This document shows positions 13,423 through 64,000 of a stretch of 64,000 bases of DNA, piece after piece. Position numbers and translations under genes: made by a program. Under the pieces are notes generated by a model. The model was not told the origin of the DNA. It ran no database searches and saw only the letters and a list, made by a program, of their open reading frames with translations. Source of the DNA: an uncultured Chloroflexia bacterium (GTDB taxonomy: Bacteria; Chloroflexota; Limnocylindria; Limnocylindrales; CSP1-4); NCBI GenBank assembly GCA_963749735.1, contig CAVVNZ010000004.1:104567-168566 (forward strand), read 5' to 3'. The number at the start of each line of letters is the position of its first letter. The stretch's first letter is position 1.

Positions 13423-13432
13423 GAGGGATGGC

Positions 13433-18686: not shown

Positions 18687-18780
18687 CGTGGAGACGATGA
18701 AACGAGCGGACCCGGGCCGCCATCGAACGGCGGTACTGCCGTCGACGGGACCCGGGTCCGCCCCCGGTCAGCTCATGGGG

Positions 18781-20677: not shown

Positions 20678-20682
20678 TCGCC

Positions 20683-21087: not shown

Positions 21088-21089
21088 CC

Positions 21090-22429: not shown

Positions 22430-22496
22430 CCCGATCCCGACGTTCCCCGTCGAGGGCGGCGACGGTGGCGCGAGCCGACCGGGTACGCTGCCCGGC

Positions 22497-23804: not shown

Positions 23805-23895
23805 CCGGGCGGTCGAAGGCGCGCTCGGCGTTCTTGTCGCATCATGCGTGGGCCCGTCCAGCCCACCCTGTCGACGGGATCATCCCGAGGCATCC

Positions 23896-24591: not shown

Positions 24592-24672
24592 CAGGGGTTC
24601 GCGGCCGGGCGTACGATGCGCCGGCACATCCCGCGTCCGGGGACCTGCCCCGTCGCCGGTGAGGAGGACCAG

Positions 24673-25303
24673 ATGAGTCGATCCATGCCCAGCCGCGTCG
24701 CTCGCGGCCGGACGTTCGCGAGCGTCGCCCTGATCGGCGCGGTCGCCCTGCTCGCGGCGTGCGGCGGTTCGTCGACGGCCGCCACGCCGGGCGCCGAGCG
24801 TGCCGGTGGTCGTGAACCCCGGCGCCAGCGACGCCGGGAACAACGGGTTCGCCCAGAGCGCCAAGCTCGAGGCCACGCTCCCGAAGACCGCCAACGGCGT
24901 GACGCTGACGACCGGATCGACGAACGTCCTCCAGCTCTACACGACCGGGAACGTGGCGCTCAACCTGCTCACGACGTTCTCGGTGGATCTCAACGTGCCA
25001 CCGGCTCAGATCGGGGCGGCCGCAGCGATCGACGCGACGGGCGGCACGATCCAGATGGTCGCCGGGCAGTTCACGGGCCAGACCAGCGCGGCCCTCCAGG
25101 CCGAGTTCGAGAAGGTCGCCACGACGACCGACCCCAAGGTGACCCTGGCCAACACCACGATCGGCGGGAAGCAGGTCACGACCGCGACGTTCCCGGGCTC
25201 GCAGACCGGCCCGGTCATCGGCTACATCACCGGCGACACGATCTACATCACCCAGTCTGCCGTGCCGGCGACCGCCGAGGACGCGATCAAGCAGCTGCCG
25301 TGA
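24673..25303 (+). pseudogene. paralogous lipoprotein, apparently frameshifted near 24780-24800
   Basis: GAGGAGGA followed by ATG 24673 gives the lipoprotein signal [34 protein letters not shown] in frame 1. The homologous body (ORF 24800..25303, ..[23 protein letters not shown]) is in frame 2, which has a TGA at 24731. Confidence 0.55.
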
Positions 25304-26685
25304 CGATCGGACGCTCCCTCGACCGACCGCTCCGCGACCCCTGGATCGTCGCCGCGGTCCGGACGCCGATCGGTCGGTACGGTGGCGCGCTCGCGACGAT
25401 CCGTCCGGATGACCTCGCCGCGGCGGTCCTGCGAGCGGTCGTCGACCGGGCCGGTCTCGACCCGGCCCTCGTGGAGGACGTCATCCTCGGCTGTGCCAAC
25501 CAGGCCGGCGAGGACAATCGCGACGTCGCGCGGATGGCGCTCCTCCTCGCCGGGTTCCCCGTCGAGGTGGCCGGGCTGACCGTCAACCGCCTGTGCGGGA
25601 GCGGGCTCCAGGCGATCAACTCGGCGGCCCACGCCATCCAGGTCGGGGACGGCGACGTGTTCATCGGGGGCGGGGTCGAGTCGATGACCCGAGCGCCGTA
25701 CGTCATGGCCAAGCCGGCCGCAGCCTGGGATCGGGGCTCGCGCGAGCTGGAGGATTCGACGCTCGGGTGGCGCTTCGTCAACCCGAAGCTGGCCGCGGCC
25801 CATTACCCGTACTCGATGGGCGAGACCGCGGAGAACGTGGCCGAACGCTGGTCGGTCGACCGTGCGCGCCAGGATGCGTTCGCCCTCGCCTCCCAGCAGA
25901 AGGCCGTGGCGGCGATCGACGCCGGCCGGTTCGACTCGCAGATCGTGCCGATCCCCGTCCCGCAGAAGAAGGGCGACGACGTCGTCGTCAGCCGCGACGA
26001 GCATCCCCGGGCGGACACGACCGCCGAGGCGCTCGGTCGCCTCCGACCGGCGTTCCGCGAGGGTGGCACGGTCACGGCGGGGAACGCATCGGGCATCAAC
26101 GACGGCGCCTCGGCGGTCCTCCTGGTCGAGGCGGGCCGGGCCCGCGCGCTCGGTCTGTCGCCCCTCGCCCGGATCGTGTCGACCGCCGTCGCCGGCGTCG
26201 ATCCCGCGATCATGGGGATCGGTCCGGTCCCGGCCACCCGGAAGGCGCTCGAGCGGGCGGGGATCTCGGTCGACGACCTCGACCTCGTCGAGCTCAACGA
26301 GGCCTTCGCCAGCCAGTCGGTCGTGTGCATCGACGAGCTCGGTCTGGACCCCGCCACGGTCAACGTGAACGGCGGAGCGATCGCGCTCGGGCACCCGCTC
26401 GGGATGAGCGGCGGTCGGTTGATCACGATGCTCGTCCACGAGCTGGTCCGGACCGGCGGCCGCTACGGTCTGGCGACGATGTGCATCGGGGTGGGGCAGG
26501 GGATCGCCACGATCGTCGAGCGGATCGACGCGCTAGGTCGGACGTTCGGGTCCCGGCGGCAGGTATTTTCAGCGCGACGCTTGTCGAAACTCGTTGCCGT
26601 GCGTACGATGGCGGTGGACATCAACCGATCCGACCCTCGCCCGGAGGACGCAGCGCATGCTCGAGACCCAGCCGACCTTCCTTGA
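25300..26685 (+). CDS. acetyl-CoA C-acyltransferase (thiolase; PaaJ/FadA-like) with an abnormal C-terminal tail
   Basis: Part of ORF 24616..26685. GTG 25300 overlaps the lipoprotein stop. Contains [46 protein letters not shown] and [15 protein letters not shown]. About 50 extra residues follow the usual end. Confidence 0.85.
26581..26609 (+). promoter_or_regulatory. candidate promoter for the Fe-S carrier gene
   Basis: TTGTCG (26581-86), a 17-nt spacer, then TACGAT (26604-09), in a locally less GC-rich stretch 48 nt upstream of ATG 26657. Confidence 0.35.
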
Positions 26686-43963: not shown

Positions 43964-44839
43964 TCAGCGATCCACCGGCAGGTCGAGTCGGTCGCCCCAT
44001 TCCGCCCAGCCCCCGTCGTAGACGGCCACGTCGTCGTGGCCGAGCAGGGTCAGGATGAAGGCGAGCTTGGCCGCGGCGATCCCGGAACCGTCGTAGCAGA
44101 CCATCCGGCGACCACGGGTGACATTCGCCTTCAGCAGCCCATCGCGGATCGCATCGGCCGGCCGGAACCGGCCCGTGCCCGGCTCGGTCATCGTCGAGAC
44201 CGGCACGTTGACCGCGCCGGGGATGTGGCCCAGCCGTCGCGTGTTGCCTTCGAACCCGCGGTACTCGGCCGGGGCGCGTGCGTCGAGGAGGAGGACCTCC
44301 GGCGAGCCCATCAGGCCCCGGATGTCAGTCGTCGTCAGCCGCATCCGCGGCATGGCGTGCGGGATGAACGACGCCGGCGTCGGTGGCAGCGTCGCGGTCG
44401 AGACCTCGCGTCCCGCGGCCGTCCACGCCGGGAGGCCGCCGTCGAGGATCCGGCCCGACTCGAGGCCGTACGTCCGGAGACTCCACCACGCTCGAGCGGC
44501 GTACAGGCTCGCCGTGTCGTCGTACAGGACCACCGTGGCGCCGGCCCCGACCCCCAACCGGCCGAGTGCCGAGGCGACGTGGTCCGGGCCCGCGAGCAGC
44601 ATCAGCGCGCTGTCCTCCGGACGATCGATCAGGTCGGTCGTCCAGTCCAGGAAGGCGGCACCCGGGATGTGGCCCGCGGCGTGGGCCGCCCGACCGGTCC
44701 CATCCGGACGGGACCGGACGTCGAGCACGCGGATCTCGGGACGACCCAGGTTCTCGGCCAGCCAGTCCACCGTGGCCAGGAGCTCCGGGCGGGGGTAGCC
44801 GCTCACGCCTCGTATCATACGGACCCGTGGTGACCCCAT
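43964..44839 (-). CDS. tandem-rhodanese sulfurtransferase (SseA/thiosulfate-3-mercaptopyruvate type)
   Basis: 291 aa with two rhodanese repeats (VLDVRS..GHIPGAAFLDW ; LLDARAPAEYRG..GHIPGAVNVP..MVCYDGSGIAA..GGWAEW). The start is ambiguous (44839, 44818 or 44806). Confidence 0.8.
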   Translation of the reverse strand: MGSPRVRMIRGVSGYPRPELLATVDWLAENLGRPEIRVLDVRSRPDGTGRAAHAAGHIPGAAFLDWTTDLIDRPEDSALMLLAGPDHVASALGRLGVGAGATVVLYDDTASLYAARAWWSLRTYGLESGRILDGGLPAWTAAGREVSTATLPPTPASFIPHAMPRMRLTTTDIRGLMGSPEVLLLDARAPAEYRGFEGNTRRLGHIPGAVNVPVSTMTEPGTGRFRPADAIRDGLLKANVTRGRRMVCYDGSGIAAAKLAFILTLLGHDDVAVYDGGWAEWGDRLDLPVDR

Positions 44840-46056
44840 TCCTCCCGGACGGCGAGAAGCTGGCGGCCGTCCGCGAGGCCCTGCCGGCGATCGCGGCGGG
44901 CATCTACCTGAACGCGGGCGCCGCCGGACCGCTGCCCGCCGAGACGCACCGGGCGATGGCCGAGCAGGCGGAGCGCGAGCTTCGCGTCGGGCGCGCCAGC
45001 CCGGACGACTCCCTCGAGCTGCTCGAGCGGATGGACGAGGCTCGCGGGGTGATCGCCGCCGTCGCCCGAGCCGACCCCGCCTCGATCGTCCTGACCCACT
45101 CGACGAGCGAGGCCATGGACCTCGCCGCCCGAGCGATCGACTGGCGACGCGGCGACCGAGCCGTCACCGGACCCCGCCGGCATGCGGGGGCACTCGGCGC
45201 CCTGCCTGTCTTGTCCGAACGGCTCGGGATCGAGCTGGCGGAGGCCGCCATCGGCGACGACGGCGACGAGGATCGGGTGCTTGCGGCGTTCGACGCCGCC
45301 ATCGCACCCGGGACACGGCTCGTATCCGTCGGGCACGTCGCCTGGACGACCGGGGTGCGACTGCCGATCGGTCGGATCGCCGAGCTCGCCCACGCGCGCG
45401 GCGCCCTGCTGGCCGTCGATGGGGCCCAAGCGATCGGCGCGATCCCCGTCGATGTGGCGCGCGAGGGCGTCGACTTCTACGCGATGCCGGCTCACAAGTG
45501 GCTGCTCGGGCCGGAGGGGATGGCGGCGCTGTACGTCGCCCCGGGCATCGCCGATCGCATCCCGGACGACACGGGCGGGGGCGACCCGGCAGGAGCCTCG
45601 GATGCTCTGGCCGGGGCCGCGTCCGGGCGCCGGTCCGAGCTGTCGGGGTTCGGTCGGGCGGCGGTGGTCGGGATGGCCCGGAGCATCGCCTGGCTGTCGA
45701 TGTACGTCGGCCTCGAGTGGGTCCATCGGCGGGGGACCGCCCTGGCAGGTTCGCTCGCCGATCGACTCGCCGCGATCCCGGGCGTCGAAGTCCTGACCCC
45801 TCGGCAGGCGATGGCGACCACGATCGCCTTCCGGATCGCCGGCTGGCACCCGGAGGACGCCTTCGAGGAGATCTCCCGCCGCTCGTTCGCCATCTTCCAG
45901 ACCGTCCCGGGCGAAGCGCTCCGGGTCGGCGTCGGCTTCTACAACAGCGAGGAGGAGCTCGAACGGTTCGCCGCGACGGTCGAGCTGCTCGCCGCGCACA
46001 CGCCCGAGACGATCCCGCCCCGGCGCACCCTGACGATCATCGGGGACGCAGGATGA
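44827..46056 (+). CDS. class V aminotransferase / cysteine-desulfurase-like PLP enzyme
   Basis: Part of ORF 44383..46056, starting at GTG 44827 or 44830. Contains IYLNAGAAGPLP, ..THSTSEAM.., and the PLP-lysine region DFYAMPAHKWLLGPEG. Confidence 0.8.
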   Translation: MVTPFLPDGEKLAAVREALPAIAAGIYLNAGAAGPLPAETHRAMAEQAERELRVGRASPDDSLELLERMDEARGVIAAVARADPASIVLTHSTSEAMDLAARAIDWRRGDRAVTGPRRHAGALGALPVLSERLGIELAEAAIGDDGDEDRVLAAFDAAIAPGTRLVSVGHVAWTTGVRLPIGRIAELAHARGALLAVDGAQAIGAIPVDVAREGVDFYAMPAHKWLLGPEGMAALYVAPGIADRIPDDTGGGDPAGASDALAGAASGRRSELSGFGRAAVVGMARSIAWLSMYVGLEWVHRRGTALAGSLADRLAAIPGVEVLTPRQAMATTIAFRIAGWHPEDAFEEISRRSFAIFQTVPGEALRVGVGFYNSEEELERFAATVELLAAHTPETIPPRRTLTIIGDAG

Positions 46057-47022: not shown

Positions 47023-47058
47023 TAGACATCGGACGGACTTTCTGCTTACATACGCGGT

Positions 47059-47472
47059 ATGTCCACGTCCGATGTCCGCATGCTTCGGATCGGCGAGGCC
47101 GCCGAGCTGCTCGGCGTGGGGGTGGACACGCTGCGACGCTGGGAGGCGGACGGCCGCCTCGAGACGGTCCGGACCGAGGGGGGCCAGCGGCTCGTCGCGC
47201 TCGGCGAGGTGAGCCGGCTCCTTGCCGAGCGACGGCGGTCAACCAGCGATCGCCCGATCGTCGCCCAGTCGGCGCGGAACCGCTTCAGCGGGATCGTCAC
47301 CCGCGTCGAGCGCGATGGCGTCGTCGCGGTGGTCGAAGTGCTGTCCGGACCCCATCGATTGGTCAGCCTGATGACCGCGGAGGCGGTCGACGATCTCGGA
47401 CTCGCCGTCGGGATCGAGGCCGTGTGTGTCATCAAGGCGACCCAGGTCATCGTCGAGATCCCAGCCGCCTGA
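47059..47472 (+). CDS. MerR/excisionase-type HTH fused to a TOBE/Mop molybdate-binding domain
   Basis: 137 aa. HTH (LRIGEAAELLGVGVDTLRRWEADGRL) plus TOBE (SARNRFSGIVTRVERDGVVAVVEV....AVCVIKATQVIV). Confidence 0.75.
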   Translation: MSTSDVRMLRIGEAAELLGVGVDTLRRWEADGRLETVRTEGGQRLVALGEVSRLLAERRRSTSDRPIVAQSARNRFSGIVTRVERDGVVAVVEVLSGPHRLVSLMTAEAVDDLGLAVGIEAVCVIKATQVIVEIPAA

Positions 47473-47486
47473 CGAAGGGGAGTCCC

Positions 47487-48359
47487 ATGTCCGCCTCCCG
47501 TCGGTTCAGTCTGCTCGTCGTCGTTGCCCTCCTGGCAGCGGCCTGCTCCAGCGGGGGTTCGAGTGCCGCTCCGTCCGCCGCGGCTACGGCGGCGCCGCCC
47601 ACCGCTGCGCCGTCGGTCGCGGCGTCGAGCGCGCCGAGCACGGCCGCCGAGGTGGATCTCACGGTCTATGGCGCCGCCTCGCTCAAGAAGGCGTTCGGTG
47701 ACATCAAGACCGCCTATGAAGCGGCGAACCCCGGCGTCAAGCTGACGATGTCGTTCGACGCCTCGAGCGCGCTCGAGACCCAGATCGAGCAGGGCGCCCC
47801 GGCCGACGTCTTCGCGTCCGCGGACACGAAGAACCCGCAGAAGCTGGTCGACGGCGGGTTCGCGACTGGACCGGTCACGAACTTCGCCGGCAACACGCTC
47901 ACGGTGATCGTTCCGGCGGCGAACCCGGCAGGCGTCACGACGCCCGCCGACCTGGCCAAGGCCGGCCTCAAGGTCGTCGGCGCCGGCGACGACGTGCCGA
48001 TCACGAAGTACGCCAACCAGCTGATCGACAACCTGGCCAAGCAGGCGGGCTATCCCGCCGACTTCGCGACCAAGGTCAAGTCGAACATCGTGTCCAAGGA
48101 GGACAACGTCGCGGCGGTCGTGTCGAAGGTCGAGCTCGGCGAGGGTGACGCGGCGATCGTCTACGTGACCGATGCAAAGGGCTCGTCCAAGGTGACGCCG
48201 GTCGCCGTGCCGGACGCCGCGAACGTCCCGGCGACGTATGGCGCCGTCCCGGTCAAGGCATCCAAGGGCCCCGCCGCTGCCGCCGCGTTCATCAGCTGGC
48301 TCGCCGGCACGGACGGCCAGGCCATCCTCGCCAAGTACGGGTTCCTCCCGCCATCGTGA
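47487..48359 (+). CDS. modA: molybdate ABC transporter substrate-binding lipoprotein
   Basis: Within ORF 47424..48359. Lipobox LLAAACSS. Contains LTVYGAASLKKAF..VFASADTKN..AAIVYVTDA. Confidence 0.85.
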   Translation: MSASRRFSLLVVVALLAAACSSGGSSAAPSAAATAAPPTAAPSVAASSAPSTAAEVDLTVYGAASLKKAFGDIKTAYEAANPGVKLTMSFDASSALETQIEQGAPADVFASADTKNPQKLVDGGFATGPVTNFAGNTLTVIVPAANPAGVTTPADLAKAGLKVVGAGDDVPITKYANQLIDNLAKQAGYPADFATKVKSNIVSKEDNVAAVVSKVELGEGDAAIVYVTDAKGSSKVTPVAVPDAANVPATYGAVPVKASKGPAAAAAFISWLAGTDGQAILAKYGFLPPS

Positions 48360-48378
48360 GCGCGGGGGAGCACCTCCG

Positions 48379-49248
48379 ATGACCGGACGTGCGGCCGCGC
48401 GACCGGGGCGGCGGCCGGCCATCCGGTCGGAGACGGGTTCGTCGGCGCAGTCGATCCCGCCCGTCGTGGTCGTCGTCGCGGCGATCGCCGTCGCGCTGCT
48501 GGCGCTGCCGGTGGTCGCGCTCCTCGCCAAGGCCCTGGTCGGCGGCGCCCTGGCCGGAGCGCTCAGCGACCCGGCGATCGTCGCCGCGCTGACACTGAGC
48601 CTGATCACGACCGGGGTGAGCCTGGTCATCACCGTCGTCCTCGGCATGCCGCTCGCGTTCGTGCTCGCCCGCCGCCGGTTTCCGGGTTCGTCGCTGGTCG
48701 AGGCGATCGTCGACCTGCCGATCGTCCTTCCGCCTTCGGTCGCCGGGCTCGCTCTGCTGCTCGCGGTCGGCCGACGGGGCCTACTGGGCGAGCCGCTCCA
48801 CGCGGTCGGGATCGAGCTGCCCTTCACGACCGTCGCGGTGATCCTGGCCCAGACCTTCGTGTCGGCGCCGTTCTTCATCCGCGCGGCGCGTTCCGGGTTC
48901 GTCGGGGTCGACTCCGACCTCGAGGACGCCGCGCGATGCGACGGTGCCGACGAGTGGGCGGTCGTCCGGCGGATCACCGTGCCGCTCGCCGGAGCGGCGC
49001 TCGCCTCCGGCCTGGTCCTCAGCTGGGCCCGGGCGATGGGGGAGTTCGGCGCCACGATCATGTTCGCCGGCAACGTCCAGGGTCTGACCCAGACGCTGCC
49101 GCTGGTGGTGTACTCCGAGTTCCAGTCGAGCCTCGACGCCTCGATCGCGGCCGCGGCCATCCTCGTCCTCGCGGCGCTCGGCGTCCTCCTCGCGGTCAGG
49201 ATCGTCCACTGGCGATCCGTCTTCGCCGGAAGCGCGGTCCTGCCGTGA
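48379..49248 (+). CDS. modB: molybdate ABC transporter permease
   Basis: Within ORF 48238..49248. Contains LPIVLPPSVAGLALLL and the EAA loop DLEDAARCDGADEWAVVRRITVPLA. Confidence 0.85.
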   Translation: MTGRAAARPGRRPAIRSETGSSAQSIPPVVVVVAAIAVALLALPVVALLAKALVGGALAGALSDPAIVAALTLSLITTGVSLVITVVLGMPLAFVLARRRFPGSSLVEAIVDLPIVLPPSVAGLALLLAVGRRGLLGEPLHAVGIELPFTTVAVILAQTFVSAPFFIRAARSGFVGVDSDLEDAARCDGADEWAVVRRITVPLAGAALASGLVLSWARAMGEFGATIMFAGNVQGLTQTLPLVVYSEFQSSLDASIAAAAILVLAALGVLLAVRIVHWRSVFAGSAVLP

Positions 49249-49324
49249 GCCACGCCCATCCGACCGGCCAGCGCTGCGGCTGCTGCGGGATGCCCGTGAT
49301 CGCGTCGCGTTGCGTCCGGACGAC

Positions 49325-50050
49325 ATGAGCCGACCGCTTCGGGTCTTCGCGGCCGGCTCGCTCCGTCCCGCCTTCGAACCGAGCCTGGTGGGGCCGACCG
49401 CATGGCCGGGCGGACCGGTCGACTTCCGGTACGCCAACGCCCGGGACCTCGCCCACGCGATCGAGCGCGGCGATCCTGCCGATGTCTTCGCCTCCGCCAG
49501 CTCGACCGATCCCGCTCGCCTCGAGGCCGCCGGTCGCCTGACCCGGGTCCTGCCCTTCGCGAGGAACCGGGTGGTCATCGGCGTCTCGACCGAGCAGGCG
49601 AGTCGGGTCGCCGACGTCGCCGACGTCGCCCGGCCCGGCACGCGGGTCGTGATCGAGATCGCCGGCGTCCCGCTCGGCGACTACACCCGCGAGGCCCTCC
49701 GACGCCTCGACCAGCCGGACCTGGCGGACGCGATCCTCTCCAACGTCGTCAGCGAGGAGGTCGACGTCGCGTCGGTCGTCGCTCGCCTGACCGACGGGTC
49801 GGCCGACGCCGGTTTCCTGTATCGGACGGACGTCCTGGCGGCCGACGACCGGCTGCGCGCCGTCGATCTTCCTCCGGGGGCCCAGGTCGAGGCGACGTAT
49901 TGGGTCGGCCTCGTCCGCGGGTTCGACCGCGGCGCTCAGGCCCGTTCATGGCAGGACTGGCTGCTCGGCCCGAGCGGTCGAGGGCTGCTCGAGGCCGCCG
50001 GTTTCGATGCCGTGGAGGCGGTGCTAGCATCCGGTCCGGCGGGGGAGTAG
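49325..50050 (+). CDS. ModA-like periplasmic-binding-fold protein lacking a signal peptide
   Basis: ORF 49310..50050 trimmed to MSRPLRVFAAGSL.. Contains DVFASASSTDPARL..AGFLYRTDV. It sits where modC would be expected, and its last 10 nt overlap the tRNA gene. Confidence 0.65.
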   Translation: MSRPLRVFAAGSLRPAFEPSLVGPTAWPGGPVDFRYANARDLAHAIERGDPADVFASASSTDPARLEAAGRLTRVLPFARNRVVIGVSTEQASRVADVADVARPGTRVVIEIAGVPLGDYTREALRRLDQPDLADAILSNVVSEEVDVASVVARLTDGSADAGFLYRTDVLAADDRLRAVDLPPGAQVEATYWVGLVRGFDRGAQARSWQDWLLGPSGRGLLEAAGFDAVEAVLASGPAGE

Positions 50051-50117
50051 CTCAGCGGTTGAGAGCAGCCGTCTTATACACGGCCGGTCCCTGGTTCGAA
50101 TCCAGGCTCCCCTACCA
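50041..50117 (+). tRNA. tRNA with anticodon TAT (tRNA-Ile, UAU), CCA encoded
   Basis: Hand-folded cloverleaf. Acceptor GGGGGAG/CTCCCCT (G1-U72 wobble), D arm GCTC-AGCGGTTGA-GAGC, anticodon arm GCCGT-CTTATAC-ACGGC (TAT at 50075-50077), variable loop CGGTC, T arm CCTGG-TTCGAAT-CCAGG, discriminator A, CCA. Confidence 0.85.
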
Positions 50118-55904: not shown

Positions 55905-56882
55905 TCAGCGCTCGCGGCGCAGCACGAGGATGTGCTGGTGGGCGATGTTCGGGACGAACGCGTTCGGGTAGCCGTACGGCCGGAGCCGCGTTCCCGCCTG
56001 GTACCAGACCAGGTCGCCCTTCGGGATGAGGCCGACGCGCTCAGCGCGACCGGCGATGTCCGCGCCGGTGAAGACGTAGCGGCCGTCCTGGTACGCATCG
56101 CGCACGATGACGACGGCGTAGCGGTTCGGACGGAGCAGCCTGCGGCACTCCGCGAGCACCGCTTCCATCCGGTCGAGGAAGGTCGGGTAGTCGGGGCTGT
56201 TGGCGAGGTCCGCCGGATCGTCGGTGACCATCGCATAGTCGGTCCGCCGGTTGGCGTGCGACTCGGACAGCTTGCCCCCGGCCATCGTCAGCGGCAGCTG
56301 GACGTTGTACGGCGGGTCGGTCGCGACGAAGTCGACCGACGCGTCGGCGAGGGTGGGGAGGATCGTCATCGCGTCGCCGAGGCGCAGCTCGAGCCCGGAC
56401 GGGTCGAACGCACGAGCGCCGCCCGGGTCGCTCGGACCGATGTCGGCGAGGATCGGGCCACGCCCGTCGCGCTCAGCCAGGGATCGGGCGATCACCCGGT
56501 CGTAGACCTCGATCCAGCGGGGCTCGAGCTCGATGCCGACGGCACGGCGCGGCCCCTGCGCGATCGCCGCTCCGAGGAGCGTGCCGCCGACGCCGGCGAA
56601 CGGATCGAGGACGAGCTCGCCTGACTTCGTGAAGAACTCGATGAGCCGGCACATCAGCCGCGGCGGTTTGTTCGCTCCATGGGCCTTGCGGAGATCGTGG
56701 CCGAGCTCGGACGGGTAGGCCGTCGACCAGATCGACTTCGTGAAGTACAGCCACTCCTCGCCCGACAGCTCGTTGAGCGCGTTCGACGGATGGGGCGTGC
56801 CGCGTCCGACCGGGTCGCCGACGACGGCCGCGCCGTCGATCGGATCCGCGTCCGGGGCTGGACCGGTGGTGCGTGCAGGCAT
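55905..56882 (-). CDS. DNA methyltransferase (N6-adenine/N4-cytosine family, DPPY motif), no adjacent endonuclease
   Basis: C-terminal 325 aa of ORF 55905..57335, starting at ATG 56882. AdoMet motif VLDPFAGVGGT precedes the catalytic motif FVATDPPYN. Confidence 0.8.
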   Translation of the reverse strand: MPARTTGPAPDADPIDGAAVVGDPVGRGTPHPSNALNELSGEEWLYFTKSIWSTAYPSELGHDLRKAHGANKPPRLMCRLIEFFTKSGELVLDPFAGVGGTLLGAAIAQGPRRAVGIELEPRWIEVYDRVIARSLAERDGRGPILADIGPSDPGGARAFDPSGLELRLGDAMTILPTLADASVDFVATDPPYNVQLPLTMAGGKLSESHANRRTDYAMVTDDPADLANSPDYPTFLDRMEAVLAECRRLLRPNRYAVVIVRDAYQDGRYVFTGADIAGRAERVGLIPKGDLVWYQAGTRLRPYGYPNAFVPNIAHQHILVLRRER

Positions 56883-56937
56883 GCACCCAGCGTACCGGTT
56901 CAGCGACCGCGGGTTCCGCGGCCGCCTAGAATGCGAC

Positions 56938-59900
56938 ATGGCCGCAAGGTTCACGAGCGCGCGGTTCATCGGCAGGGAGCGGGAGCTCGCCCGCCTGGCC
57001 GGTGCGCTCGAGGCCGCCGCCGCGGGCCGACCGTCGACCATCCTGCTCTCGGGAAGCGGCGGTCTGGGCGCGAGCCGCCTGCTCGACGAGGCCGAGCGTC
57101 GGATCGCGGCGCTGCCTGAACCGTTCACCGTGGTCCGCTGCCGGGCGCGACCCGGCCAGGTCGGTGACCCGTTCACCCCGGTCGCGACCGGTCTCGGTCG
57201 GCTGCTCGGCGAGCTCCCCGACCGCGAGCTCGCCGGGGTCGTGGGCGCCGGGGCCGAGGAGATCGGCCGGCTCCTGCCGGGGATGATCGCCCGCCTCGGT
57301 GGGCTCGGCCTGCTGCCGTCGCGCCCGACCATCACCGAGCCCGAGCGCCGCCAGACGAGGATGCTCGAGTCGATCCTCGACGTCCTCCATCGCCTGGGCG
57401 AACGACAGCCCGTGGTGCTCTGCCTCGAAGACCTCCAGTCCGCGGACGCGGGGACGCGAGCGCTGGCGACGTTCCTGGCGCGGGTGGCGCGCCCCGGTCG
57501 GCTGGCCGTGCTCGTGACCTACCAGCCCGACGAGCTCACCCGTCCACACCCACTCCGGTCCGCGCTGACCGAGATGAGCGAGGCCGCGGATCCCCCGGCG
57601 GAGCTGCCGCTCCGGCCGTTCGATCGGGACGAGCTGGCCGAGCTCATCGAGGCGATCGAGGGCGAGCGGCCGTCGGCCTCGGTCCTCCTCCTCGTCGCCG
57701 AGCGGTCGCACGGGAACGCGCTCGTGGCCGAGGAGATCCTGGCCGCCCGTCGCGAGCTCGCCGGGGTGTCCCTCACGGGCTCGCTCGACGAGCTGGCGAT
57801 GGCGCGCCTCGCCCAGCGGACGCCGGAATGTCGGCGAGTCCTGCGGCTGCTGGCCCCGGCCGGCGAGCCGCTCCGGATCGACGAGCTCGCGGCCGCGTCG
57901 GCCGCCTTCGAGCGGAGCGCGGACCGTCCGGCGCCCCGGTCCAGCGGTGCGCCCCGTCGCGGCGGCGGCATCCTGGAGCCGGACCTTGCGGTCGGCCTGG
58001 TCGAGGCCATCGAGCACGGCTTCGTGGTCCTCGACGGAGACACCGGCATGCGGGCCGGCCGGCCCGACCCCCCGGCGCTCACACCGAGCGATGCGGCCGC
58101 CCTCCCCGCCGAGGCGACCGTCGGCTTCCGCCACGAGCTCATCGCGCGCGCCGTCGAGGCGGACCTCCTGCCCGCCCAGCGTCGCCGTCACCATTCCGCG
58201 CTGGCGGTCGGACTCGGATCGCGACCCGGGTCGCGGGCGCGCCAGCACCTCGCCGCCCATGAGCCCGGGCCCGCCCGTGCCGCGGCGATCGAGGCCGCCG
58301 ACCTGGCCGAGGCCATCGACGCCTCCGGCGATGCGCTGGCCCATCTCGAGCTCGCCCTCGAGCTCGACGACCGGACGATCCCGCCCGGGGGACCGAGCGA
58401 TCCGGCCGCTCCCGTCCAGCTCCTGGCCCGAGCCGCCGAGGCGGCGTTCGCCGCCGGTCGGCCGATCCGGGCCGCGGCCTACGCCGAGTCGTCGATCGCG
58501 CGGCTCGATGAGCGGGCGGATCGTGTGGAGCTCGCCCTCCTCCACGAGCGGCTGGGGCGGTATCGCCGAGCCGCGGGGGACCAGGAGGGAGCGATCGCGG
58601 CCCACCGCCGAGCCGCCCGCCTCATCCCGTCGGAGGCGATCCGCGAGCGGGCGTTGATCCTCGGATCGCTCGCCCAGGTCCTGATGCTGGAGGGCCTGTT
58701 CACGGAGGCCGAGCGACTCTGTCGTGAGGCGATCGGGGTGGCCAGGTCGGCCGGTCCCGCGGCGCGCGGCGAGGAAGGCCATGCGATCTGCACCCTGGGC
58801 ATCACCAAGGTCTGGGGGGAGGATCCGGAGGCTGGGGTGGCCCTCCTCCGCGAGGCGCGCTCGATCGCCGAGGAGCTCGGCCGGCTGGGCGACATCTTCC
58901 GGGCGACCGCCAACCTGACCACGGCCCTCGACGTCCTCGGGCGTCGGCGCGAAGCCGTCGATGTCGCGATGGCCGGGATCGAGGCGGCCCGCGAGTACGG
59001 TCAGGAGGCGACCTACGGCAACTTCCTGCGGGGCAACGGGGCCGACTCGCTGTTCATCCTCGGCCGCTGGGAAGAGTGCCGCCGCCTCGGCGAGACCGCC
59101 CTCGAGTGGAGTCCCGTCGGGCTCAACTTCGTCAATGCGGCGACGAACCTGGCGATGGTCGCGGTCGAGACGCGGTCGGGCGAGATCGCCGGTCGGTTGC
59201 TGGGTCGGCTGATGCTCGAGCTCGAGACGGTCCCCGACGCCCAGGCCTCCGCCCCGGCGTACCTTGCGGCCGCGTCGTTCGCCCTGTGGCACGAGGACCT
59301 CGGCGACGCCCGCCGCGCGGTCGAGCTCGGATGGGCGCCGATCCGCGACACCGAGGACTGGGTCCTGATCGCCAGGATGGCGGCGACGTTCCTCGAGACG
59401 GACGCGGCCGTCTTCGCCGACGCCCGCGAACGGAGGGACCTGCCGACGCTGGCCGCGGCCCGGGAGCGGGCGCATCGCGTCCTCGAACGAGCCGAGGAGG
59501 CGGTCTCGGCCTCCGGCGTGGCCCGGGCGATCGGATCGCGGCGCGAGGCCGATGCCCATCTCGCGACCGCGCGGGCCTTCCTGGCCAGGATCGACGGCCA
59601 CGACGAGGCCTCGGCGTGGGAGTCGCTGGCGCGGACCTGGGAGGAGCTCGGGATCCCCTATCAGGTCGCCCGCAGCCGATGGCGCCAGGCGGAGGCCGCC
59701 CTCGGCGCCGGGGAGGGGCGGCCCGGTCGAGCAGCGGCGCGCCGGCCGATCCTCGACGCGGTCCGCATCGCCCGAGAGCTCGGAGCCCGACCGCTCCTGC
59801 GCGAGCTCGAGGAGCTCGCAGGTCGGGCCAGGATCTCCATCCCCGGGGTCCCCGGGGCGGATGTCGAACCCGAGCCGGAGACGGGCGTCCCGCTGCCGGT

Positions 59901-60210
59901 CGCGGTCGCGGTGGGTCCCGGGCGCGACGGGTCGAGCGATGGCACGGGCGTCGAAGCGGGCGGCCTCGCCCGGGAGTTCGTCGGGCCCGCCCGTCCGAAG
60001 TCGGCCGTCTTCGGGCTCAGCCCGCGCGAGCGGGAGGTCCTCCTCCTGCTGGCCGCCGGCCGAACGAACCGTGAGATCGGCGAGCACCTGTTCATCAGCC
60101 AGAAGACCGTCGGGGTCCACGTCGGCAACATCCTGGCCAAGCTCAGCGTGTCGGGCCGGGTCGAAGCCGCCGCCGTCGCCATCCGCCTGGGGCTGACCGA
60201 CCGGCGCTGA
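56938..60210 (+). CDS. large LuxR-family regulator (LAL/MalT-like: N-terminal P-loop NTPase, helical repeats, C-terminal LuxR HTH)
   Basis: Within ORF 56740..60210, starting at ATG 56938. Contains FIGRERELARL, a P-loop-like LLSGSGGLGASRLL, Walker-B-like VVLCLEDLQSAD, and the C-terminus LSPREREVLLLLAAGRTNREIGEHLFISQKTVGVHVGNILAKL. Confidence 0.85.
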   Translation: MAARFTSARFIGRERELARLAGALEAAAAGRPSTILLSGSGGLGASRLLDEAERRIAALPEPFTVVRCRARPGQVGDPFTPVATGLGRLLGELPDRELAGVVGAGAEEIGRLLPGMIARLGGLGLLPSRPTITEPERRQTRMLESILDVLHRLGERQPVVLCLEDLQSADAGTRALATFLARVARPGRLAVLVTYQPDELTRPHPLRSALTEMSEAADPPAELPLRPFDRDELAELIEAIEGERPSASVLLLVAERSHGNALVAEEILAARRELAGVSLTGSLDELAMARLAQRTPECRRVLRLLAPAGEPLRIDELAAASAAFERSADRPAPRSSGAPRRGGGILEPDLAVGLVEAIEHGFVVLDGDTGMRAGRPDPPALTPSDAAALPAEATVGFRHELIARAVEADLLPAQRRRHHSALAVGLGSRPGSRARQHLAAHEPGPARAAAIEAADLAEAIDASGDALAHLELALELDDRTIPPGGPSDPAAPVQLLARAAEAAFAAGRPIRAAAYAESSIARLDERADRVELALLHERLGRYRRAAGDQEGAIAAHRRAARLIPSEAIRERALILGSLAQVLMLEGLFTEAERLCREAIGVARSAGPAARGEEGHAICTLGITKVWGEDPEAGVALLREARSIAEELGRLGDIFRATANLTTALDVLGRRREAVDVAMAGIEAAREYGQEATYGNFLRGNGADSLFILGRWEECRRLGETALEWSPVGLNFVNAATNLAMVAVETRSGEIAGRLLGRLMLELETVPDAQASAPAYLAAASFALWHEDLGDARRAVELGWAPIRDTEDWVLIARMAATFLETDAAVFADARERRDLPTLAAARERAHRVLERAEEAVSASGVARAIGSRREADAHLATARAFLARIDGHDEASAWESLARTWEELGIPYQVARSRWRQAEAALGAGEGRPGRAAARRPILDAVRIARELGARPLLRELEELAGRARISIPGVPGADVEPEPETGVPLPVAVAVGPGRDGSSDGTGVEAGGLAREFVGPARPKSAVFGLSPREREVLLLLAAGRTNREIGEHLFISQKTVGVHVGNILAKLSVSGRVEAAAVAIRLGLTDRR

Positions 60211-60280
60211 GCGAGCCGCGGTCGACGGCCCGCGGTTGACGGCCCGCCGCCGTCGCCCGTACCATCCGCCCACAACCGAA

Positions 60281-60392
60281 GAGCGCTTATCAAGAGTGGC
60301 GGAGGGACCGGCCCGTCGAAGCCACGACAACCTACCGGCGATGCAGTCGGCAAGGTGCCAAATCCGGGCAGGTCCTCCTGCGAGATAAGGGA
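60281..60392 (+). promoter_or_regulatory. SAM-I (S-box) riboswitch aptamer
   Basis: CTTATCAAGAGTGGCGGAGGGACCGGCCCGTCGAAGCCACGACAACC...GGCAAGGTGCCAAATCCGGGCAGG...GCGAGATAAG. P1 pairs CTTATC (60286-91) with GATAAG (60384-89). The conserved S-box core strings are all present. Confidence 0.85.
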
Positions 60393-60401
60393 ATCACCCG
60401 A

Positions 60402-60433
60402 GACCCTTCCTCCGGGGAAGGGTCTTCTCGTTT
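60402..60433 (+). terminator. riboswitch expression-platform terminator
   Basis: 9-bp stem GACCCTTCC / GGAAGGGTC with a 5-nt loop, followed by TTCTCGTTT, 48 nt before ATG 60481. Confidence 0.65.
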
Positions 60434-60480
60434 CCCGGTCCCGAGCGCCGACCCGCGACCGCCGAGGAACGACCCGACCG

Positions 60481-61818
60481 ATGACCGCGCAGCTGCTGAC
60501 CGGAACGCCGCCGCCCGAGCTCGGGCCGGCATCCGCCGCGCCCGCGAACCGGATCGTCGGGCTGCGCTGCCGCAACTGTGGACGCGCCGAGACCCTCGGG
60601 CCGAGCTACGTCTGCCCGGCCTGCTTCGGACCGCTCGAGGTCGCCTATGACCTGGGCACGATCGCCGGTCTGATCGACCGGGCGACCATCGCGGCCCGGC
60701 CGGCGGGGATCTGGCGCTACCTGGAGCTCCTGCCGGTCGACGCGGCCCCGGTCCGCGGCCTCGCCGTCGGATCGACCCCGCTGGTCCACGCCGACCGTCT
60801 CGGCGCGGCGCTCGGGATCGACCGGCTCCTGATCAAGGACGACACCCGCAACCCGACCCTGTCGTTCAAGGATCGTGCCGTGGCCATCGCGGCGACCCGC
60901 GCCGTCGACTTCGGGCTGAGCGCGCTCGCCTGCGCCTCGACCGGCAACCTGGCCGGCGCGACCGCCGCCGCCGCGGCGGCCGTGGGGCTGCCGTCGTACG
61001 TCTTCATCCCGGCCGATCTCGAGCCGGCGAAGATCGACCACGCCCTGGCCTACGGCGCGACGGTCGTCCCGATCGACGGGACCTACGACGACGTGAACCG
61101 GCTCTGCCTCGAGGTCGCCGACGAGCTCGGCTGGGGCTTCGTCAACGTCAACCTCCGACCGTTCTACGCCGAGGGCAGCAAGACGCTCGCCTTCGAGATC
61201 GCCGAGGCGCTCGGCTGGCGGCTGCCCGACGTCATCGTGGCGCCGATCGCCTCGGGTGCGATGTTCATCAAGTTGGCCAAGGCGTTCGACGAGCTGGCCG
61301 AGGTCGGGCTGATCGATCGACGGACGCCGGTCCGGTTCGTCGGCGGCCAGGCCGCGGGCTGCGCTCCCGTGGCGACCGCGTTCGCGGCCGGGACCGACGT
61401 GATCGACCCGGTCCGGACCCCCGACACGATCGTCCGCTCGCTGGCCATCGGCAACCCGGCCGACGGACGCTATGCCGTCGAGCTCGCCAACGCGAGCGGC
61501 GGCACGATCGAGGCCATCCCGGACGCGGCGACGGCGGAGGCGATCCGGCAGGTCGCCCGTCTCGAGGGCATCTACCCGGAGACCGCGGGCGGGGTGACCC
61601 TGGCCGCGGCGCAGGCCGCCCGGGCCCGCGGCATCATCCGCGATGGCGACGAGGTCGTGGCGCTGCTCACCGGGAACGGGCTCAAGACCCCCGATGCGGT
61701 GCGCTTCGGCGAGGGCGACGGTGGCGCCACACGCGAGCGAGCGCGCGGCGGGCAGCCGGGCCTGGCCCCGACGCTCCCGCCGCGGTTCGCGGCGTTCGAA
61801 GCGTGGCTCGAGTCGTGA
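60481..61818 (+). CDS. threonine-synthase-family PLP enzyme with N-terminal zinc ribbon (MetM-like homocysteine synthase candidate)
   Basis: Within ORF 60355..61818. Contains CRNCGR..CPACFG and the PLP lysine motif NPTLSFKDRAV, plus ..ASTGNLAG.. It is placed under a SAM riboswitch. Confidence 0.8.
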   Translation: MTAQLLTGTPPPELGPASAAPANRIVGLRCRNCGRAETLGPSYVCPACFGPLEVAYDLGTIAGLIDRATIAARPAGIWRYLELLPVDAAPVRGLAVGSTPLVHADRLGAALGIDRLLIKDDTRNPTLSFKDRAVAIAATRAVDFGLSALACASTGNLAGATAAAAAAVGLPSYVFIPADLEPAKIDHALAYGATVVPIDGTYDDVNRLCLEVADELGWGFVNVNLRPFYAEGSKTLAFEIAEALGWRLPDVIVAPIASGAMFIKLAKAFDELAEVGLIDRRTPVRFVGGQAAGCAPVATAFAAGTDVIDPVRTPDTIVRSLAIGNPADGRYAVELANASGGTIEAIPDAATAEAIRQVARLEGIYPETAGGVTLAAAQAARARGIIRDGDEVVALLTGNGLKTPDAVRFGEGDGGATRERARGGQPGLAPTLPPRFAAFEAWLES

Positions 61819-62174
61819 GCCTCGTCCGCATCCCGCCCGTCCTCCGCACGTCGACGGGCGGCGAGAAGCAGGTCGAGGTCGGCGGGTCGACCGTGCGCGA
61901 GGTCATCGACGGGCTGGTCACGACCTACCCCGGCCTGGCGCCGCAGCTGCTCGACGGGCAGGGCGATCTCAACCGGTTCGTCAACGTCTTCCTCAACGAC
62001 ACGGACGTCCGTCACCTCCAGGCGCTCGACACGCCGGTCGACGCGCGCGACACCCTGATGCTCCTGCCCGCGATGGCGGGCGGCGACGGCCTGGACCCGC
62101 AAACGGGCGTCACGCCGCGCCATGGCACGCACGGCGGGCCGTGCTCCTGTCCGGGGCGGGTCGCCGTTCGCTGA
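61815..62174 (+). CDS. CysO/MoaD/ThiS-type sulfur-carrier protein with a 29-aa extension after the GG motif
   Basis: ORF 61803..62174; the GTG at 61815 overlaps the upstream stop (GTGA). IPPVLRTSTGGEKQV..NRFVNVFLNDTDVRH..LLPAMAGG closely parallels my recollection of M. tuberculosis CysO. GG ends at 62084 and the frame continues to 62174. Confidence 0.75.
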   Translation: MSLVRIPPVLRTSTGGEKQVEVGGSTVREVIDGLVTTYPGLAPQLLDGQGDLNRFVNVFLNDTDVRHLQALDTPVDARDTLMLLPAMAGGDGLDPQTGVTPRHGTHGGPCSCPGRVAVR

Positions 62175-62235
62175 CGCCGATCACGGCGCACGACGAGCGA
62201 CTCGCGGAACCCCGGCCCGGCCACCCAGTCCCATC

Positions 62236-62736
62236 GTGTCCAGGAGAACCCTCTTCGTGTCGATCCCCGTTCGCAGCCCCATCCGTCTCATCGATCCGCG
62301 CGGCCAGCGTTTCGGCGCCGCCGGGTCGGCCATCGTCCTCGCCCTCGCGATCGTCCTCGACCTGCCGATCGTCGTCGCGTTGGTCGCGCTCGCGCTCGGC
62401 GTCAGCTCGGCGCTTGGGACCCGCACCTTCGTCTTCGGCCGACCGTGGCCATATGTGCGGGACCTCCTGAAGCTCGGGCCGCCGGCAGCGCCCGAACCGG
62501 AGGTCGGTCCACGATTCGCCCAGGCGCTCGGGTTCACCTTCCTGGCGCTCGGCTTCGTCCTGCTCGTCGCGGGCATCCGGCCGCTCGGCTGGCTCCCGGT
62601 CGTCGCGGTGGTCGCGCTCCAGACGCTCCTCGCGACCACCGGCTACTGCCTCGGCTGCCGGTTGTACGGCCTCCAGTGGTGGGTCCCGGAGCAGTTCGAC
62701 CGGTTCGTCCTGCGGCGGACGCCGACCGTCGACTGA
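62236..62736 (+). CDS. DUF4395-like membrane protein
   Basis: ORF 62122..62736 trimmed to GTG 62236. Four TM helices and a C-terminal TGYCLGCRLY motif that I associate with DUF4395. Confidence 0.55.
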   Translation: MSRRTLFVSIPVRSPIRLIDPRGQRFGAAGSAIVLALAIVLDLPIVVALVALALGVSSALGTRTFVFGRPWPYVRDLLKLGPPAAPEPEVGPRFAQALGFTFLALGFVLLVAGIRPLGWLPVVAVVALQTLLATTGYCLGCRLYGLQWWVPEQFDRFVLRRTPTVD

Positions 62737-62823: not shown

Positions 62824-63642
62824 GTGGAGGTGAGCACCGCCACAGGTCCGTTCGAGGCGCCCACGGCCGACGACGTCGTCTCGATCGACGGGGTGGCCGT
62901 GGCCCGCGGTGAACCGCTCAAGATCCTGGTCGTTGACGACGAACCGGCGATGGTCGGGGTCATCGGCGCGATCCTGGGCAGTGCCGGACATCGGATCATC
63001 GCCGCCTACGACGGGCGTGAGGCGATCCGCCGGTTCGAGGAGGACCGGCCGGACCTCGTCCTGCTCGACCTGGCGATGCCGGGGATGGACGGCGCGGACG
63101 TCTGTCGGCGGATCCGGGCGGCCGGTGACACGCCGATCATCGTCGTGTCGGGTGAGAGCGACCTCGGCGTCACCGTCGAGCTGCTGGACGCCGGTGCGGA
63201 CGACTACATCCGCAAGCCGTTCCGGGCCGCCGAGCTCCTGGCCCGGACCCGGACCGTCGTCCGGCGACAGCGTCGGGCTCCCGCCCGTGACGGCTGGCTG
63301 GTCGACCGCAATCGCCACGAAGTGACCTGGCTGGGGCGCCGCGTCGAGCTGACCGTGACCGAGTTCCGGCTCGTGTCGCGGCTGGTCGACCGACTCGGCG
63401 AGGTCGTCGACCGGCGCGATCTGCTCGCCTATGCGTGGCCGGGGGTCGACGATCCCGATGTCCTGTGGCTCAAGCCGCACATGGCCCGCCTCCGCTCGAA
63501 GCTCATCTCGGTCGGCGCGCCGCTGCCGGTCCCGATCCGCGGCGTGGGCTATCGGCTCGACGACGCGCCCGACGGGCTGCTCGGTGACGGCACGGTTGCG
63601 AGCCCCGCATCCGAGTGGTCACCGACCGAGGGCGAGGCGTAA
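62824..63642 (+). CDS. OmpR/PhoB-family response regulator, no cognate kinase adjacent
   Basis: 272 aa. Receiver domain (ILVVDDEP..DLVLLDLAMPGMDG..IIVVSG..DDYIRKPF) plus winged helix (LTVTEFRLVSRL..VWLKPHMARLRSKL..IRGVGYRL). Confidence 0.85.
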   Translation: MEVSTATGPFEAPTADDVVSIDGVAVARGEPLKILVVDDEPAMVGVIGAILGSAGHRIIAAYDGREAIRRFEEDRPDLVLLDLAMPGMDGADVCRRIRAAGDTPIIVVSGESDLGVTVELLDAGADDYIRKPFRAAELLARTRTVVRRQRRAPARDGWLVDRNRHEVTWLGRRVELTVTEFRLVSRLVDRLGEVVDRRDLLAYAWPGVDDPDVLWLKPHMARLRSKLISVGAPLPVPIRGVGYRLDDAPDGLLGDGTVASPASEWSPTEGEA

Positions 63643-63778: not shown

Positions 63779-64000
63779 ATGCGAGATCGGATCAGACGAG
63801 GATTGGCGGCCGCCGGGATCGGCGCGGCCCTGCTGGCGGTCCTGCCGGGGACGGTGGCCGCGGCCGACGGGTCCACGATCGATACCGGCGACACGGCCTG
63901 GATGCTGATGTCGACCGCGTTGGTCATGATCATGCTCCCGGGGCTGGCGCTGTTCTACGGCGGTCTCGTCCGGCGCAAGAACGTCCTGTCGACGATCATG
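63779..64000 (+). CDS. amt: ammonium transporter, N-terminal fragment (continues beyond the window end)
   Basis: My own translation from ATG 63779: [74 protein letters not shown]. This is the classic Amt N-terminus. The track omits it because it runs off the edge. Confidence 0.8.

Follow-up and report, generated by a model that had tools for sequence, protein, structure and literature searches.

A SAM-I riboswitch precedes a predicted MetM/MetO-type homocysteine operon that includes a DUF4395 gene in a Limnocylindria bacterium (Chloroflexota)

The window, a 64-kb stretch of contig CAVVNZ010000004.1 from an uncultured member of the Limnocylindria (Chloroflexota), carries near its 3' end a SAM-I riboswitch (for S-adenosylmethionine, SAM) followed by three genes, which encode a threonine synthase (ThrC)-family enzyme (metM), a small sulfur carrier (metO) and a membrane protein of the family DUF4395 (Table 1). 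By analogy with Streptomyces albulus, the operon is likely to be a SAM-repressed operon of the methionine branch of the MetM/MetO type, and MetM is predicted to be an O-phosphohomoserine-dependent homocysteine synthase. The core operon is a further member, in Chloroflexota (Limnocylindria), of the system published in 2024. The operon-embedded DUF4395 gene and a box of Cys codons with a hairpin that is fused to MetO set the window apart from the published system; the place of DUF4395 after a SAM-I-controlled metM is new, and so is a MetO with an internal Gly-Gly and a C-x-C tail before a covarying hairpin.

S. albulus is reported to have a route to homocysteine that consists of MetO, Mec, MoeZ and MetM (Hasebe et al. 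2024, AEM 90:e01247-24, as cited in GapMind 2026). MetM in this account is a homocysteine synthase that depends on the thiocarboxylate of MetO and takes O-phosphohomoserine as its substrate, and MetO is reported to require Mec for maturation and MoeZ for loading. GapMind 2026 describes MetM as "often misannotated" as threonine synthase, and a SAM riboswitch lies upstream of the S. albulus metM (PMC12172450). An earlier reading of the window, made from the sequence only, had pointed to this Streptomyces route, correctly according to GapMind 2026 and PMC12172450, which cite Hasebe et al. 2024. The window shares with S. albulus a ThrC-family enzyme beside a ThiS-like carrier and a SAM riboswitch before metM. 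It differs in its lineage, in having DUF4395 in the operon, and in a 29-residue, Cys-containing tail on the carrier that lies over a conserved RNA hairpin. The S. albulus carrier is reported to need a Mec-type hydrolase and MoeZ, whereas the window has neither moeZ nor mec in its 64 kb.

The aptamer scores 72.5 bits with Rfam family RF00162, whose gathering threshold is 44.4, and matches it along the whole model (positions 1-108 of 108; E=4.9e-15), so the S-box claimed in the sequence-only reading is upheld by the covariance model far over its threshold. It is the sole riboswitch that Rfam reports in the whole window at gathering thresholds. A covariance model that we built from 13 aptamers was used to seek SAM-I in related loci, and it places one, with at least 70 bits, upstream of every metM that has upstream DNA (41 related loci and the window). 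Rfam also confirms SAM-I in three of the related loci, of type B as defined below. From its sequence, the aptamer is predicted to bind SAM and to repress the downstream genes.

The region between the aptamer and metM resembles the expression platform of an attenuator. When the 3' half of the terminator-like hairpin is blocked in folding, GAG..AAGGG pairs with CCCUU.CUC (3+5 bp), and this pairing of the P1 3' strand with the left arm of the terminator would, in the folding model, be the classical S-box antiterminator arrangement. Abundant SAM would bind the aptamer and lock P1, upon which the hairpin would form and transcription stop; at low SAM, the P1 3' strand would pair with the left arm of the hairpin and allow read-through. 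The hairpin core CCCUUCC...GGAAGGG is kept in 31 of 31 aptamer-downstream regions (the window and 30 related loci), and the tail after the hairpin is often more U-rich in the related loci, including those of type B. The GC hairpin that had been described with a U-rich tract thus stands as a conserved 12-bp stem, while the tract in the window is weak and short. This short U run, which is also why a simple terminator scanner does not call the hairpin, and a whole-leader fold z of only -1.58 weigh against termination at this site. The promoter-like site upstream of the aptamer, found once against 0.1 expected in shuffles, is a consensus match alone.

Table 1. Positions of the operon and of its putative regulatory elements in the window (nt, nucleotides; aa, amino acids; PLP, pyridoxal phosphate; MFE, minimum free energy)
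Feature	Position	Strand	Remarks
Promoter-like site, TTGACG-18-TACCAT	60236-60265	+	Consensus scan; 19 nt 5' of aptamer
SAM-I (S-box) aptamer, helices P1-P4	60284-60391	+	Rfam RF00162
Candidate antiterminator	60382-60412	+	P1 3' strand GAGAUAAGGG pairs with terminator 5' half CCCUUCCUC
Terminator-like hairpin and tract UCUCGUUUCC	60400-60436	+	MFE folds; 12-bp G+C-rich stem at 60400-60426
metM-like gene, ThrC-family PLP enzyme, 445 aa	60481-61818	+	PALP, TIGR00260
metO core, ThiS/MoaD/CysO-like ubiquitin-fold sulfur carrier	61815-62084	+	Residues 1-90, ends ...LLPAMAGG
In-frame metO extension, 29 codons DGLDPQTGVTPRHGTHGGPCSCPGRVAVR and stop	62085-62174	+	
Cys box UGC UCC UGU (MetO Cys110, Cys112)	62142-62150	+	
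Conserved hairpin, GCGGG...CUCGC, enclosing the metO stop	62156-62205	+	14 nt from first Cys codon
Shine-Dalgarno AGGAG of DUF4395 gene	62242-62246	+	10 nt before GTG at 62257; read from sequence
DUF4395 gene, 159 aa, four predicted transmembrane helices	62257-62736	+	PF14340

The family assignments that had been made for the three genes agree with profile searches. The metM product has a PALP domain (Pfam, E=1.5e-67), scores 248.8 bits with the NCBIfam model TIGR00260 (thrC; cut-off 167.1) and 291.6 bits with the threonine synthase model PRK08197, just below its cut-off of 303. Its SFKDR motif comprises residues 128-132, with Lys130, and the four cysteines of its N-terminal ribbon are at residues 30, 33, 45 and 48. 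Solved threonine synthases match the catalytic core only (best 190.7 bits, E=5e-55), none with the N-terminal ribbon. The TGA stop of metM overlaps the GTG start of metO in the sequence GTGA (61815-61818), through which the two genes are translationally coupled. The full open reading frame (ORF) of the carrier, 61815-62174, matches ThiS (E=1.6e-12) and the SAMP1 model NF041918 (62.7 bits, cut-off 60), and has its Gly-Gly at residues 89-90. MetO homologues of 90 residues ending at Gly-Gly are common; one homologue of 148 residues (P0289), in which part of the ubiquitin-fold core is duplicated internally, nevertheless has Gly-Gly as its end. The third product matches PF14340 over profile positions 1-127 of 130 (E=1.5e-23, 84 bits against a gathering threshold of 24.5) and has the sequence YCLGC at residues 130-134. 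The GTG start at 62257 agrees with the N-termini of DUF4395 homologues (MSIPVR...).

The gene context in relatives argues for the methionine branch. The closest relatives are 95%-identical contigs from metagenome-assembled genomes (MAGs), a 95%-identical contig has the identical gene order, and the best protein matches bear the names Chloroflexota or Candidatus Limnocylindrales. Relatives whose MetM is 77-80% identical also have the order SAM-I, metM, carrier. One of these (L087:4492-12026) has SAM-I, a metM of 77% identity, a metO of 90 residues ending at Gly-Gly, a fusion gene of S-methyltransferase and methylenetetrahydrofolate reductase (MTHFR) domains, and a B12-dependent metH; this operon would be a complete module from O-phosphohomoserine to methionine. 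In another locus (L089) a Cys_Met_Meta_PP gene adjoins metO. The chromosome of Nonomuraea gerenzanensis, a record filed with plasmids, has SAM-I (60.6 bits with our model) followed by metM and metO, where the Zn-ribbon ThrC homologue is 54% identical to the MetM of the window and the MetO, of 91 residues and ending at Gly-Gly, is 45% identical to that of the window. The Nonomuraea and L087 operons thus support the assignment to the methionine branch that the sequence-only reading had proposed.

In the proposed reaction, MetM would convert O-phosphohomoserine to homocysteine, with the C-terminal thiocarboxylate of MetO as the sulfur donor. The pathway resembles the CysO-CysM-Mec-MoeZ system of Mycobacterium tuberculosis, where a carrier thiocarboxylate serves a PLP enzyme that acts on an O-phospho amino acid and a JAMM hydrolase acts at the Gly-Gly of the carrier. 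Both systems pair a ubiquitin-fold carrier with a PLP enzyme for an O-phospho amino acid; the window differs in having an enzyme of the ThrC rather than the CysK/CysM family, in its control by a SAM riboswitch, and in the link of its relatives to the MTHFR-domain gene and metH. The product is predicted to be homocysteine and not cysteine because of this link.

It is very unlikely that metM encodes a genuine, possibly housekeeping, threonine synthase under SAM control, with the carrier and DUF4395 serving another process. The enzyme does pass TIGR00260 and falls only slightly under the PRK08197 cut-off, its catalytic core aligns with solved ThrC structures, source databases label its relatives "threonine synthase", and no other thrC is seen in the 64-kb window. 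A SAM OFF-switch on a threonine synthase would be anti-homeostatic, however, as at high SAM it would lower threonine and direct O-phosphohomoserine to methionine; it fits a methionine-branch enzyme, and the MetM/MetO assignment is therefore favoured. The context of a threonine pathway is also lacking, with SAM-I upstream, the carrier coupled downstream and neither hom nor thrB found in the window survey. metM is translationally coupled to the sulfur carrier in all loci of type A, the 77%-identical relative is co-operonic with the MTHFR-domain gene and metH, and one of the three ThrC-like places in the Nonomuraea record is linked to a riboswitch. The label given to the relatives would be the misannotation that GapMind 2026 describes, and TIGR00260 evidently does not separate MetM from ThrC. 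Just as improbable is that the enzyme and the carrier make cysteine, CysM/CysO-like from O-phosphoserine, or a thiocarboxylate-derived secondary metabolite. The carrier resembles CysO- and SAMP-type proteins, the Cys-codon box suggests a tie to cysteine status, and DUF4395 homologues adjoin a rhodanese in some genomes. The enzyme belongs to the ThrC family nevertheless: its best matches are all ThrC models, and it reaches 40.7 bits with the cysteine synthase A model NF007989 against a cut-off of 387. SAM-I riboswitches govern methionine and SAM genes, the operon in relatives is linked to the MTHFR-domain gene, metH and the Cys_Met_Meta_PP gene, and no biosynthetic cluster genes lie near the operon.

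Several points weigh against the MetM/MetO assignment. When about 55 candidate ORFs from all parts of the window were searched with Pfam, no ThiF/MoeZ, no JAB/Mec and no further met gene turned up, in agreement with the sequence-only reading, and no MoeZ-type E1 or JAMM protease lies within about 8-10 kb of the operon in relatives. Orthology with the S. albulus pair is drawn through the Nonomuraea proxy and the gene context, and the threonine synthase equivalog model TIGR00260 is passed. The assignment also calls for a separate thrC, which, like moeZ and mec, would be encoded elsewhere in the genome.

Dozens of genomes link DUF4395 to a SAM-I-controlled metM. Scanning the DUF4395 alignment over one genome per species gave 80 loci, mostly in MAGs of Limnocylindria, with single contigs of Polarisedimenticolia, Miltoncostaeaceae, Eisenbacteria, Acidimicrobiales and Deferrimicrobiaceae. 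Locus types were assigned by tblastn, the covariance model from 13 aptamers, and jackhmmer. Type A (19 loci and the window) has SAM-I, metM, metO and DUF4395; type B (about 25 loci) has SAM-I, metM and DUF4395 and lacks a ThiS-like ORF within about 8 kb; in type C (about 37 loci, 50-62% identity), DUF4395 stands without metM or SAM-I. DUF4395 thus lies directly 3' of a SAM-I-controlled metM, with or without metO, in about 45 of the 80 loci. The co-occurrence of DUF4395 with metO-like genes, which had been put forward for checking, is seen in 19 SAM-I-metM loci, and about 25 others have DUF4395 without metO. A diverged MetO was sought in the type B loci with jackhmmer, and none was found within about 8 kb. 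DUF4395 is absent from many metM-metO loci.

The DUF4395 protein has the conserved motifs IDPRGQRFG, GRPWP, EPExGPRFAQALG and GYCLGC, the last with an invariant C131-L-G-C134. An AlphaFold2 model (mean predicted local distance difference test, pLDDT, 85.3) has four long helices, with the CxxC right after the fourth. In type C, a two-domain rhodanese follows DUF4395 in four loci (L039:8511-9377, L054, L071 and L079), and a divergent LysR-family gene (cluster c3; for example L074:6892-7836) is present in 16 loci, mostly without the Cys-box leader described below. In types A and B, DUF4395 is apparently under SAM control; in A, B and part of C it would be regulated through the Cys box and hairpin, and in the rest of C apparently through a LysR-type regulator. 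Because of this regulation and the rhodanese neighbours in some genomes, DUF4395 may have a role in sulfur handling, most likely in support of the pathway, either as a relay for thiols or sulfane sulfur or as part of an uptake system for sulfur compounds. Any specific version of a membrane role in sulfur supply or in thiol/persulfide handling is doubtful. Against such a role, Foldseek finds no neighbour of the model in the PDB below E=1, and the family has no relative of known function. Weak MAPEG and 4-helix Foldseek matches were disregarded. Literature that mentions the family gives no function for it, and tblastn against a plasmid collection gave no match.

Other genes occur near DUF4395 and metM in the window and in relatives. 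In about 14 type B loci (for example L044:8529-9704, L029 and L021) a DAO-family FAD oxidoreductase of about 390 residues follows DUF4395 on the same strand, and may be co-transcribed with it. This gene (cluster c2) was considered as a MoeZ candidate and rejected on its family; c21 and c26, considered as Mec, are SRPBCC and MerR proteins. In the window, a two-domain rhodanese (about 43967-44800, -) and a class-V, cysteine-desulfurase-like aminotransferase (about 44900-46053, +) are divergently encoded about 15 kb upstream of the operon, and are possible sulfur-mobilising partners of it. A DoxX-family membrane protein is encoded two genes upstream of a SAM-I-metM-metO locus without DUF4395 (L084:1949-2497), which may be coincidence; DoxX works with rhodanese in mycobacterial thiol homeostasis.

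The MetO of the window does not end at its Gly-Gly, and neither do its type A homologues. Each of the 18 complete type A MetO ORFs has a tail of 22-45 residues with C-x-C-(P)-x-R at its end, and although the tails come in at least eight different lengths, the motif never leaves the frame of MetO. Relatives of MetO in the databases have 2-13 cysteines in the tail, in CxC repeats, and several start the tail with a Cys right after the Gly-Gly. LLPAMAGG is strictly conserved, so thiocarboxylation at the Gly-Gly is most likely retained. As the Gly-Gly is internal, a Gly-Gly-specific protease would have to remove the tail before sulfur is loaded. A JAMM/Mec-type protease would remove the 29 residues and an E1-like, MoeZ-type enzyme would then load the sulfur, both presumably encoded outside the window. 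Such cleavage would agree with the need for Mec that GapMind 2026 gives for S. albulus.

Carriers made with a C-terminal extension past the Gly-Gly have a precedent. In thioquinolobactin synthesis, the residues that follow the Gly-Gly of the carrier QbsE are removed by the JAMM protease QbsD. The QbsE tail has two residues, whereas that of MetO has 22-45, is Cys-rich, lies over a conserved RNA element and also occurs as an independent mini-ORF in genomes without an adjacent carrier.

The tail motif follows DUF4395 in its distribution. MetO is tail-less in Nonomuraea and in five Limnocylindria-type loci (L084, L086, L087, L089 and L090), all without DUF4395; a further locus without DUF4395 (L091) has a degenerate tail with one Cys, and L092, which has DUF4395, encodes a tailed MetO (P0273) with the box in frame. 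In type B, 19 of 25 loci retain the motif in a mini-ORF of its own that lies between metM and DUF4395 (for example MTRPTGIPGRCSCPRRA), and the ATG of the mini-ORF overlaps the metM stop (ATGA) in six loci, exactly in the place of the metO start. It looks as if the MetO core had been deleted and the mini-ORF left behind. A search for the MetO tail at the C-terminal end of type B MetM found none. In type C, an upstream mini-ORF has the motif in 22 of 37 loci. As MetO without DUF4395 is tail-less and the motif is kept in types B and C, the element of box plus hairpin travels with DUF4395 and not with MetO. In two loci (L086:6353-7036 and L091:5461-6096) a secreted protein with an EDHLIPLSIGG (HNH-like) motif takes the place of DUF4395, in flanking synteny shared with the window (LuxR ... 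response regulator, Amt, GAF kinase, GltB), which suggests that the MetO tail and DUF4395 were lost together.

Purifying selection at the peptide level is not supported for the tail, where nonsynonymous changes stand to synonymous ones at a ratio of 2.12 in the motif and of 0.70 in the MetO core. At least part of the constraint must therefore act on the nucleotides and not the peptide, which points to a reading at the level of RNA. The Cys box ends 5 nucleotides before a hairpin in the window. In 52 of 57 loci, GCG(A/G)G stands at a fixed offset of 14 nucleotides from the first Cys codon, and in 55 of the 57 the box is followed by a hairpin that C(U/C)CGC closes. Helix positions 3 and 5-9 covary (A-U/G-C/G-U; C-G/G-C/U-A). 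The hairpin of the window has -32.0 kcal/mol against a mean of -18.0 for stretches of the same length in the window (z=-3.0), and the hairpins across loci have a mean z of -2.75 against same-length windows of the same loci. The codon that precedes the hairpin is UGU in every Cys box examined, and UGU is the minority Cys codon in the window (TGC 14, TGT 5). The leader belongs to no Rfam family, either at permissive E-values in the window or at gathering thresholds in ten type B and C loci.

A ribosome-mediated, cysteine-responsive leader, fused in frame to metO in the lineage of the window, is the most likely reading of the Cys codons and the hairpin, to be held tentatively and at a little less than probable. 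More speculative, though possible, is the wider proposal that the element represents an undescribed class of cis-regulatory RNA, which would sense cysteine by ribosome pausing and would have been captured into the frame of MetO, that the operon would integrate SAM and cysteine, and that DUF4395 would be a dedicated membrane component for sulfur supply or thiol relay. In the MFE fold of the window, CUCCUG (62144-62149) in the Cys box pairs with CAGGAG (62241-62246) at the DUF4395 Shine-Dalgarno, a complementarity run of 6 that has p=0.024 against random 13-mers. The Cys box was also considered as a general anti-Shine-Dalgarno and rejected, with duplex energies no better than those of shuffles (mean z -0.26). 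Against a cysteine-responsive leader, the pairing is present in only 12 of the 57 loci, the Cys codons are two with one codon between them and not a consecutive run, the type B mini-ORFs have no obvious Shine-Dalgarno, and nonsynonymous changes are in excess in the motif, as given above.

A comparable arrangement is known from mycobacteria, where leaderless short ORFs with polycysteine tracts act as attenuators: a stalled ribosome opens a structure that sequesters the following gene's ribosome-binding site, upstream of a rhodanese operon (Canestrari et al. 2020, bioRxiv 10.1101/834739). Both elements have the Cys codons of a short ORF, a putative one at DUF4395, just before a stable RNA structure, together with genes of sulfur metabolism, and the window shares with the mycobacterial Ms5788A model Cys codons that are complementary to the downstream Shine-Dalgarno. 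The mycobacterial short ORFs are leaderless, whereas the DUF4395 element is operon-internal, either fused to metO or after metM; they have a consecutive run of Cys, whereas the DUF4395 element has C-x-C and shows no general pairing to the Shine-Dalgarno. Neither the text nor the supplement of Canestrari et al. 2020 states that Ms5788, which lies 3' of the published polycysteine short ORF, is a DUF4395 protein.

A reading that ranks behind the cysteine-responsive leader, unlikely in itself and compatible with the leader, is that the MetO tail or mini-ORF is a functional Cys peptide, either a pro-sequence or a small partner with which DUF4395 would exchange metal, persulfide or disulfide, released after the Gly-Gly in the manner of a ubiquitin fusion. 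The motif always lies within an ORF that has a start and a stop codon, it keeps the frame of MetO in every tailed MetO examined, and it strictly co-occurs with DUF4395, itself a protein with an invariant CxxC. The Cys-rich tails with CxC repeats are metallothionein-like, the type C mini-ORFs share residues other than Cys (L.RL.GEPC.C.RR), and the Mec requirement of the S. albulus MetO, according to GapMind 2026, would suit a released tail. Yet the "RR" of the peptide motif, in the conserved form RR(A/V/G), coincides exactly with the base of the covarying helix GCGAG...CUCGC, the second Cys always has the rarer codon UGU, nonsynonymous changes outnumber synonymous ones in the motif, and the stop follows the motif after anything between 1 and 19 codons. 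Disfavoured, and far less probable still, is a neutral read-through that followed loss of a stop codon in G+C-rich DNA, with DUF4395 as a passenger gene. At 72% G+C, chance often leaves frames of 20-40 codons open, the stretch of the tail between the Gly-Gly and the motif is poorly conserved, and many metM-metO loci have no DUF4395. Chance would hardly account for a box and hairpin that keep their spacing in those 52 of 57 loci and in three gene contexts, with the hairpin itself in 55, or for hairpins far stabler than their background. The type B mini-ORF, moreover, still overlaps metM through ATGA although the MetO core is gone, and the order metM to DUF4395 is kept in about 45 species-level genomes.

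The operon is flanked by regulatory and nitrogen-assimilation genes. Immediately 5' of the riboswitch lies a gene for an AAA_16/TPR/LuxR-type regulator of 1156 residues (56740-60210, +), whose position is kept in type A relatives (cluster c5). On the 3' side are an OmpR-type response regulator with a weak N-terminal match to GlnR (62824-63642, +) and an ammonium transporter (63780-64000, +). In relatives (L001:4087-12497), a GAF histidine kinase and glutamate synthase come next, in a nitrogen-assimilation cluster with conserved synteny. Further upstream, the stretches 9095-26685 and 47026-50047 contain a phenylacetate/beta-oxidation cluster, comprising a fumarase-class lyase, enoyl-CoA hydratases, PaaA/PaaC, 3-hydroxyacyl-CoA dehydrogenase and thiolase, as well as ABC transporter genes that accompany a molybdate-type MerR/TOBE regulator. 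A single tRNA is encoded in the window, a tRNA-Ile with the anticodon UAU (50041-50117, +; ARAGORN, and Rfam tRNA with 68 bits). In most bacteria AUA is read by a lysidine-modified CAU tRNA, and the UAU isoacceptor is uncommon.

The operon extends the MetM/MetO route of 2024, together with its SAM riboswitch, to abundant uncultured Chloroflexota of soil and freshwater. Many "threonine synthase" genes of Chloroflexota are probably homocysteine synthases, which matters for the metabolic reconstruction of MAGs. For DUF4395, a widespread family, its ties to SAM-I-controlled metM, to rhodanese and to its own Cys-codon leader are a first functional handle. Should the leader prove to sense cysteine, it would add a second, independent case of ribosome-mediated cysteine attenuation, outside the mycobacteria, and an unusual one, in which a regulatory leader is fused to the C-terminus of a ubiquitin-like protein.

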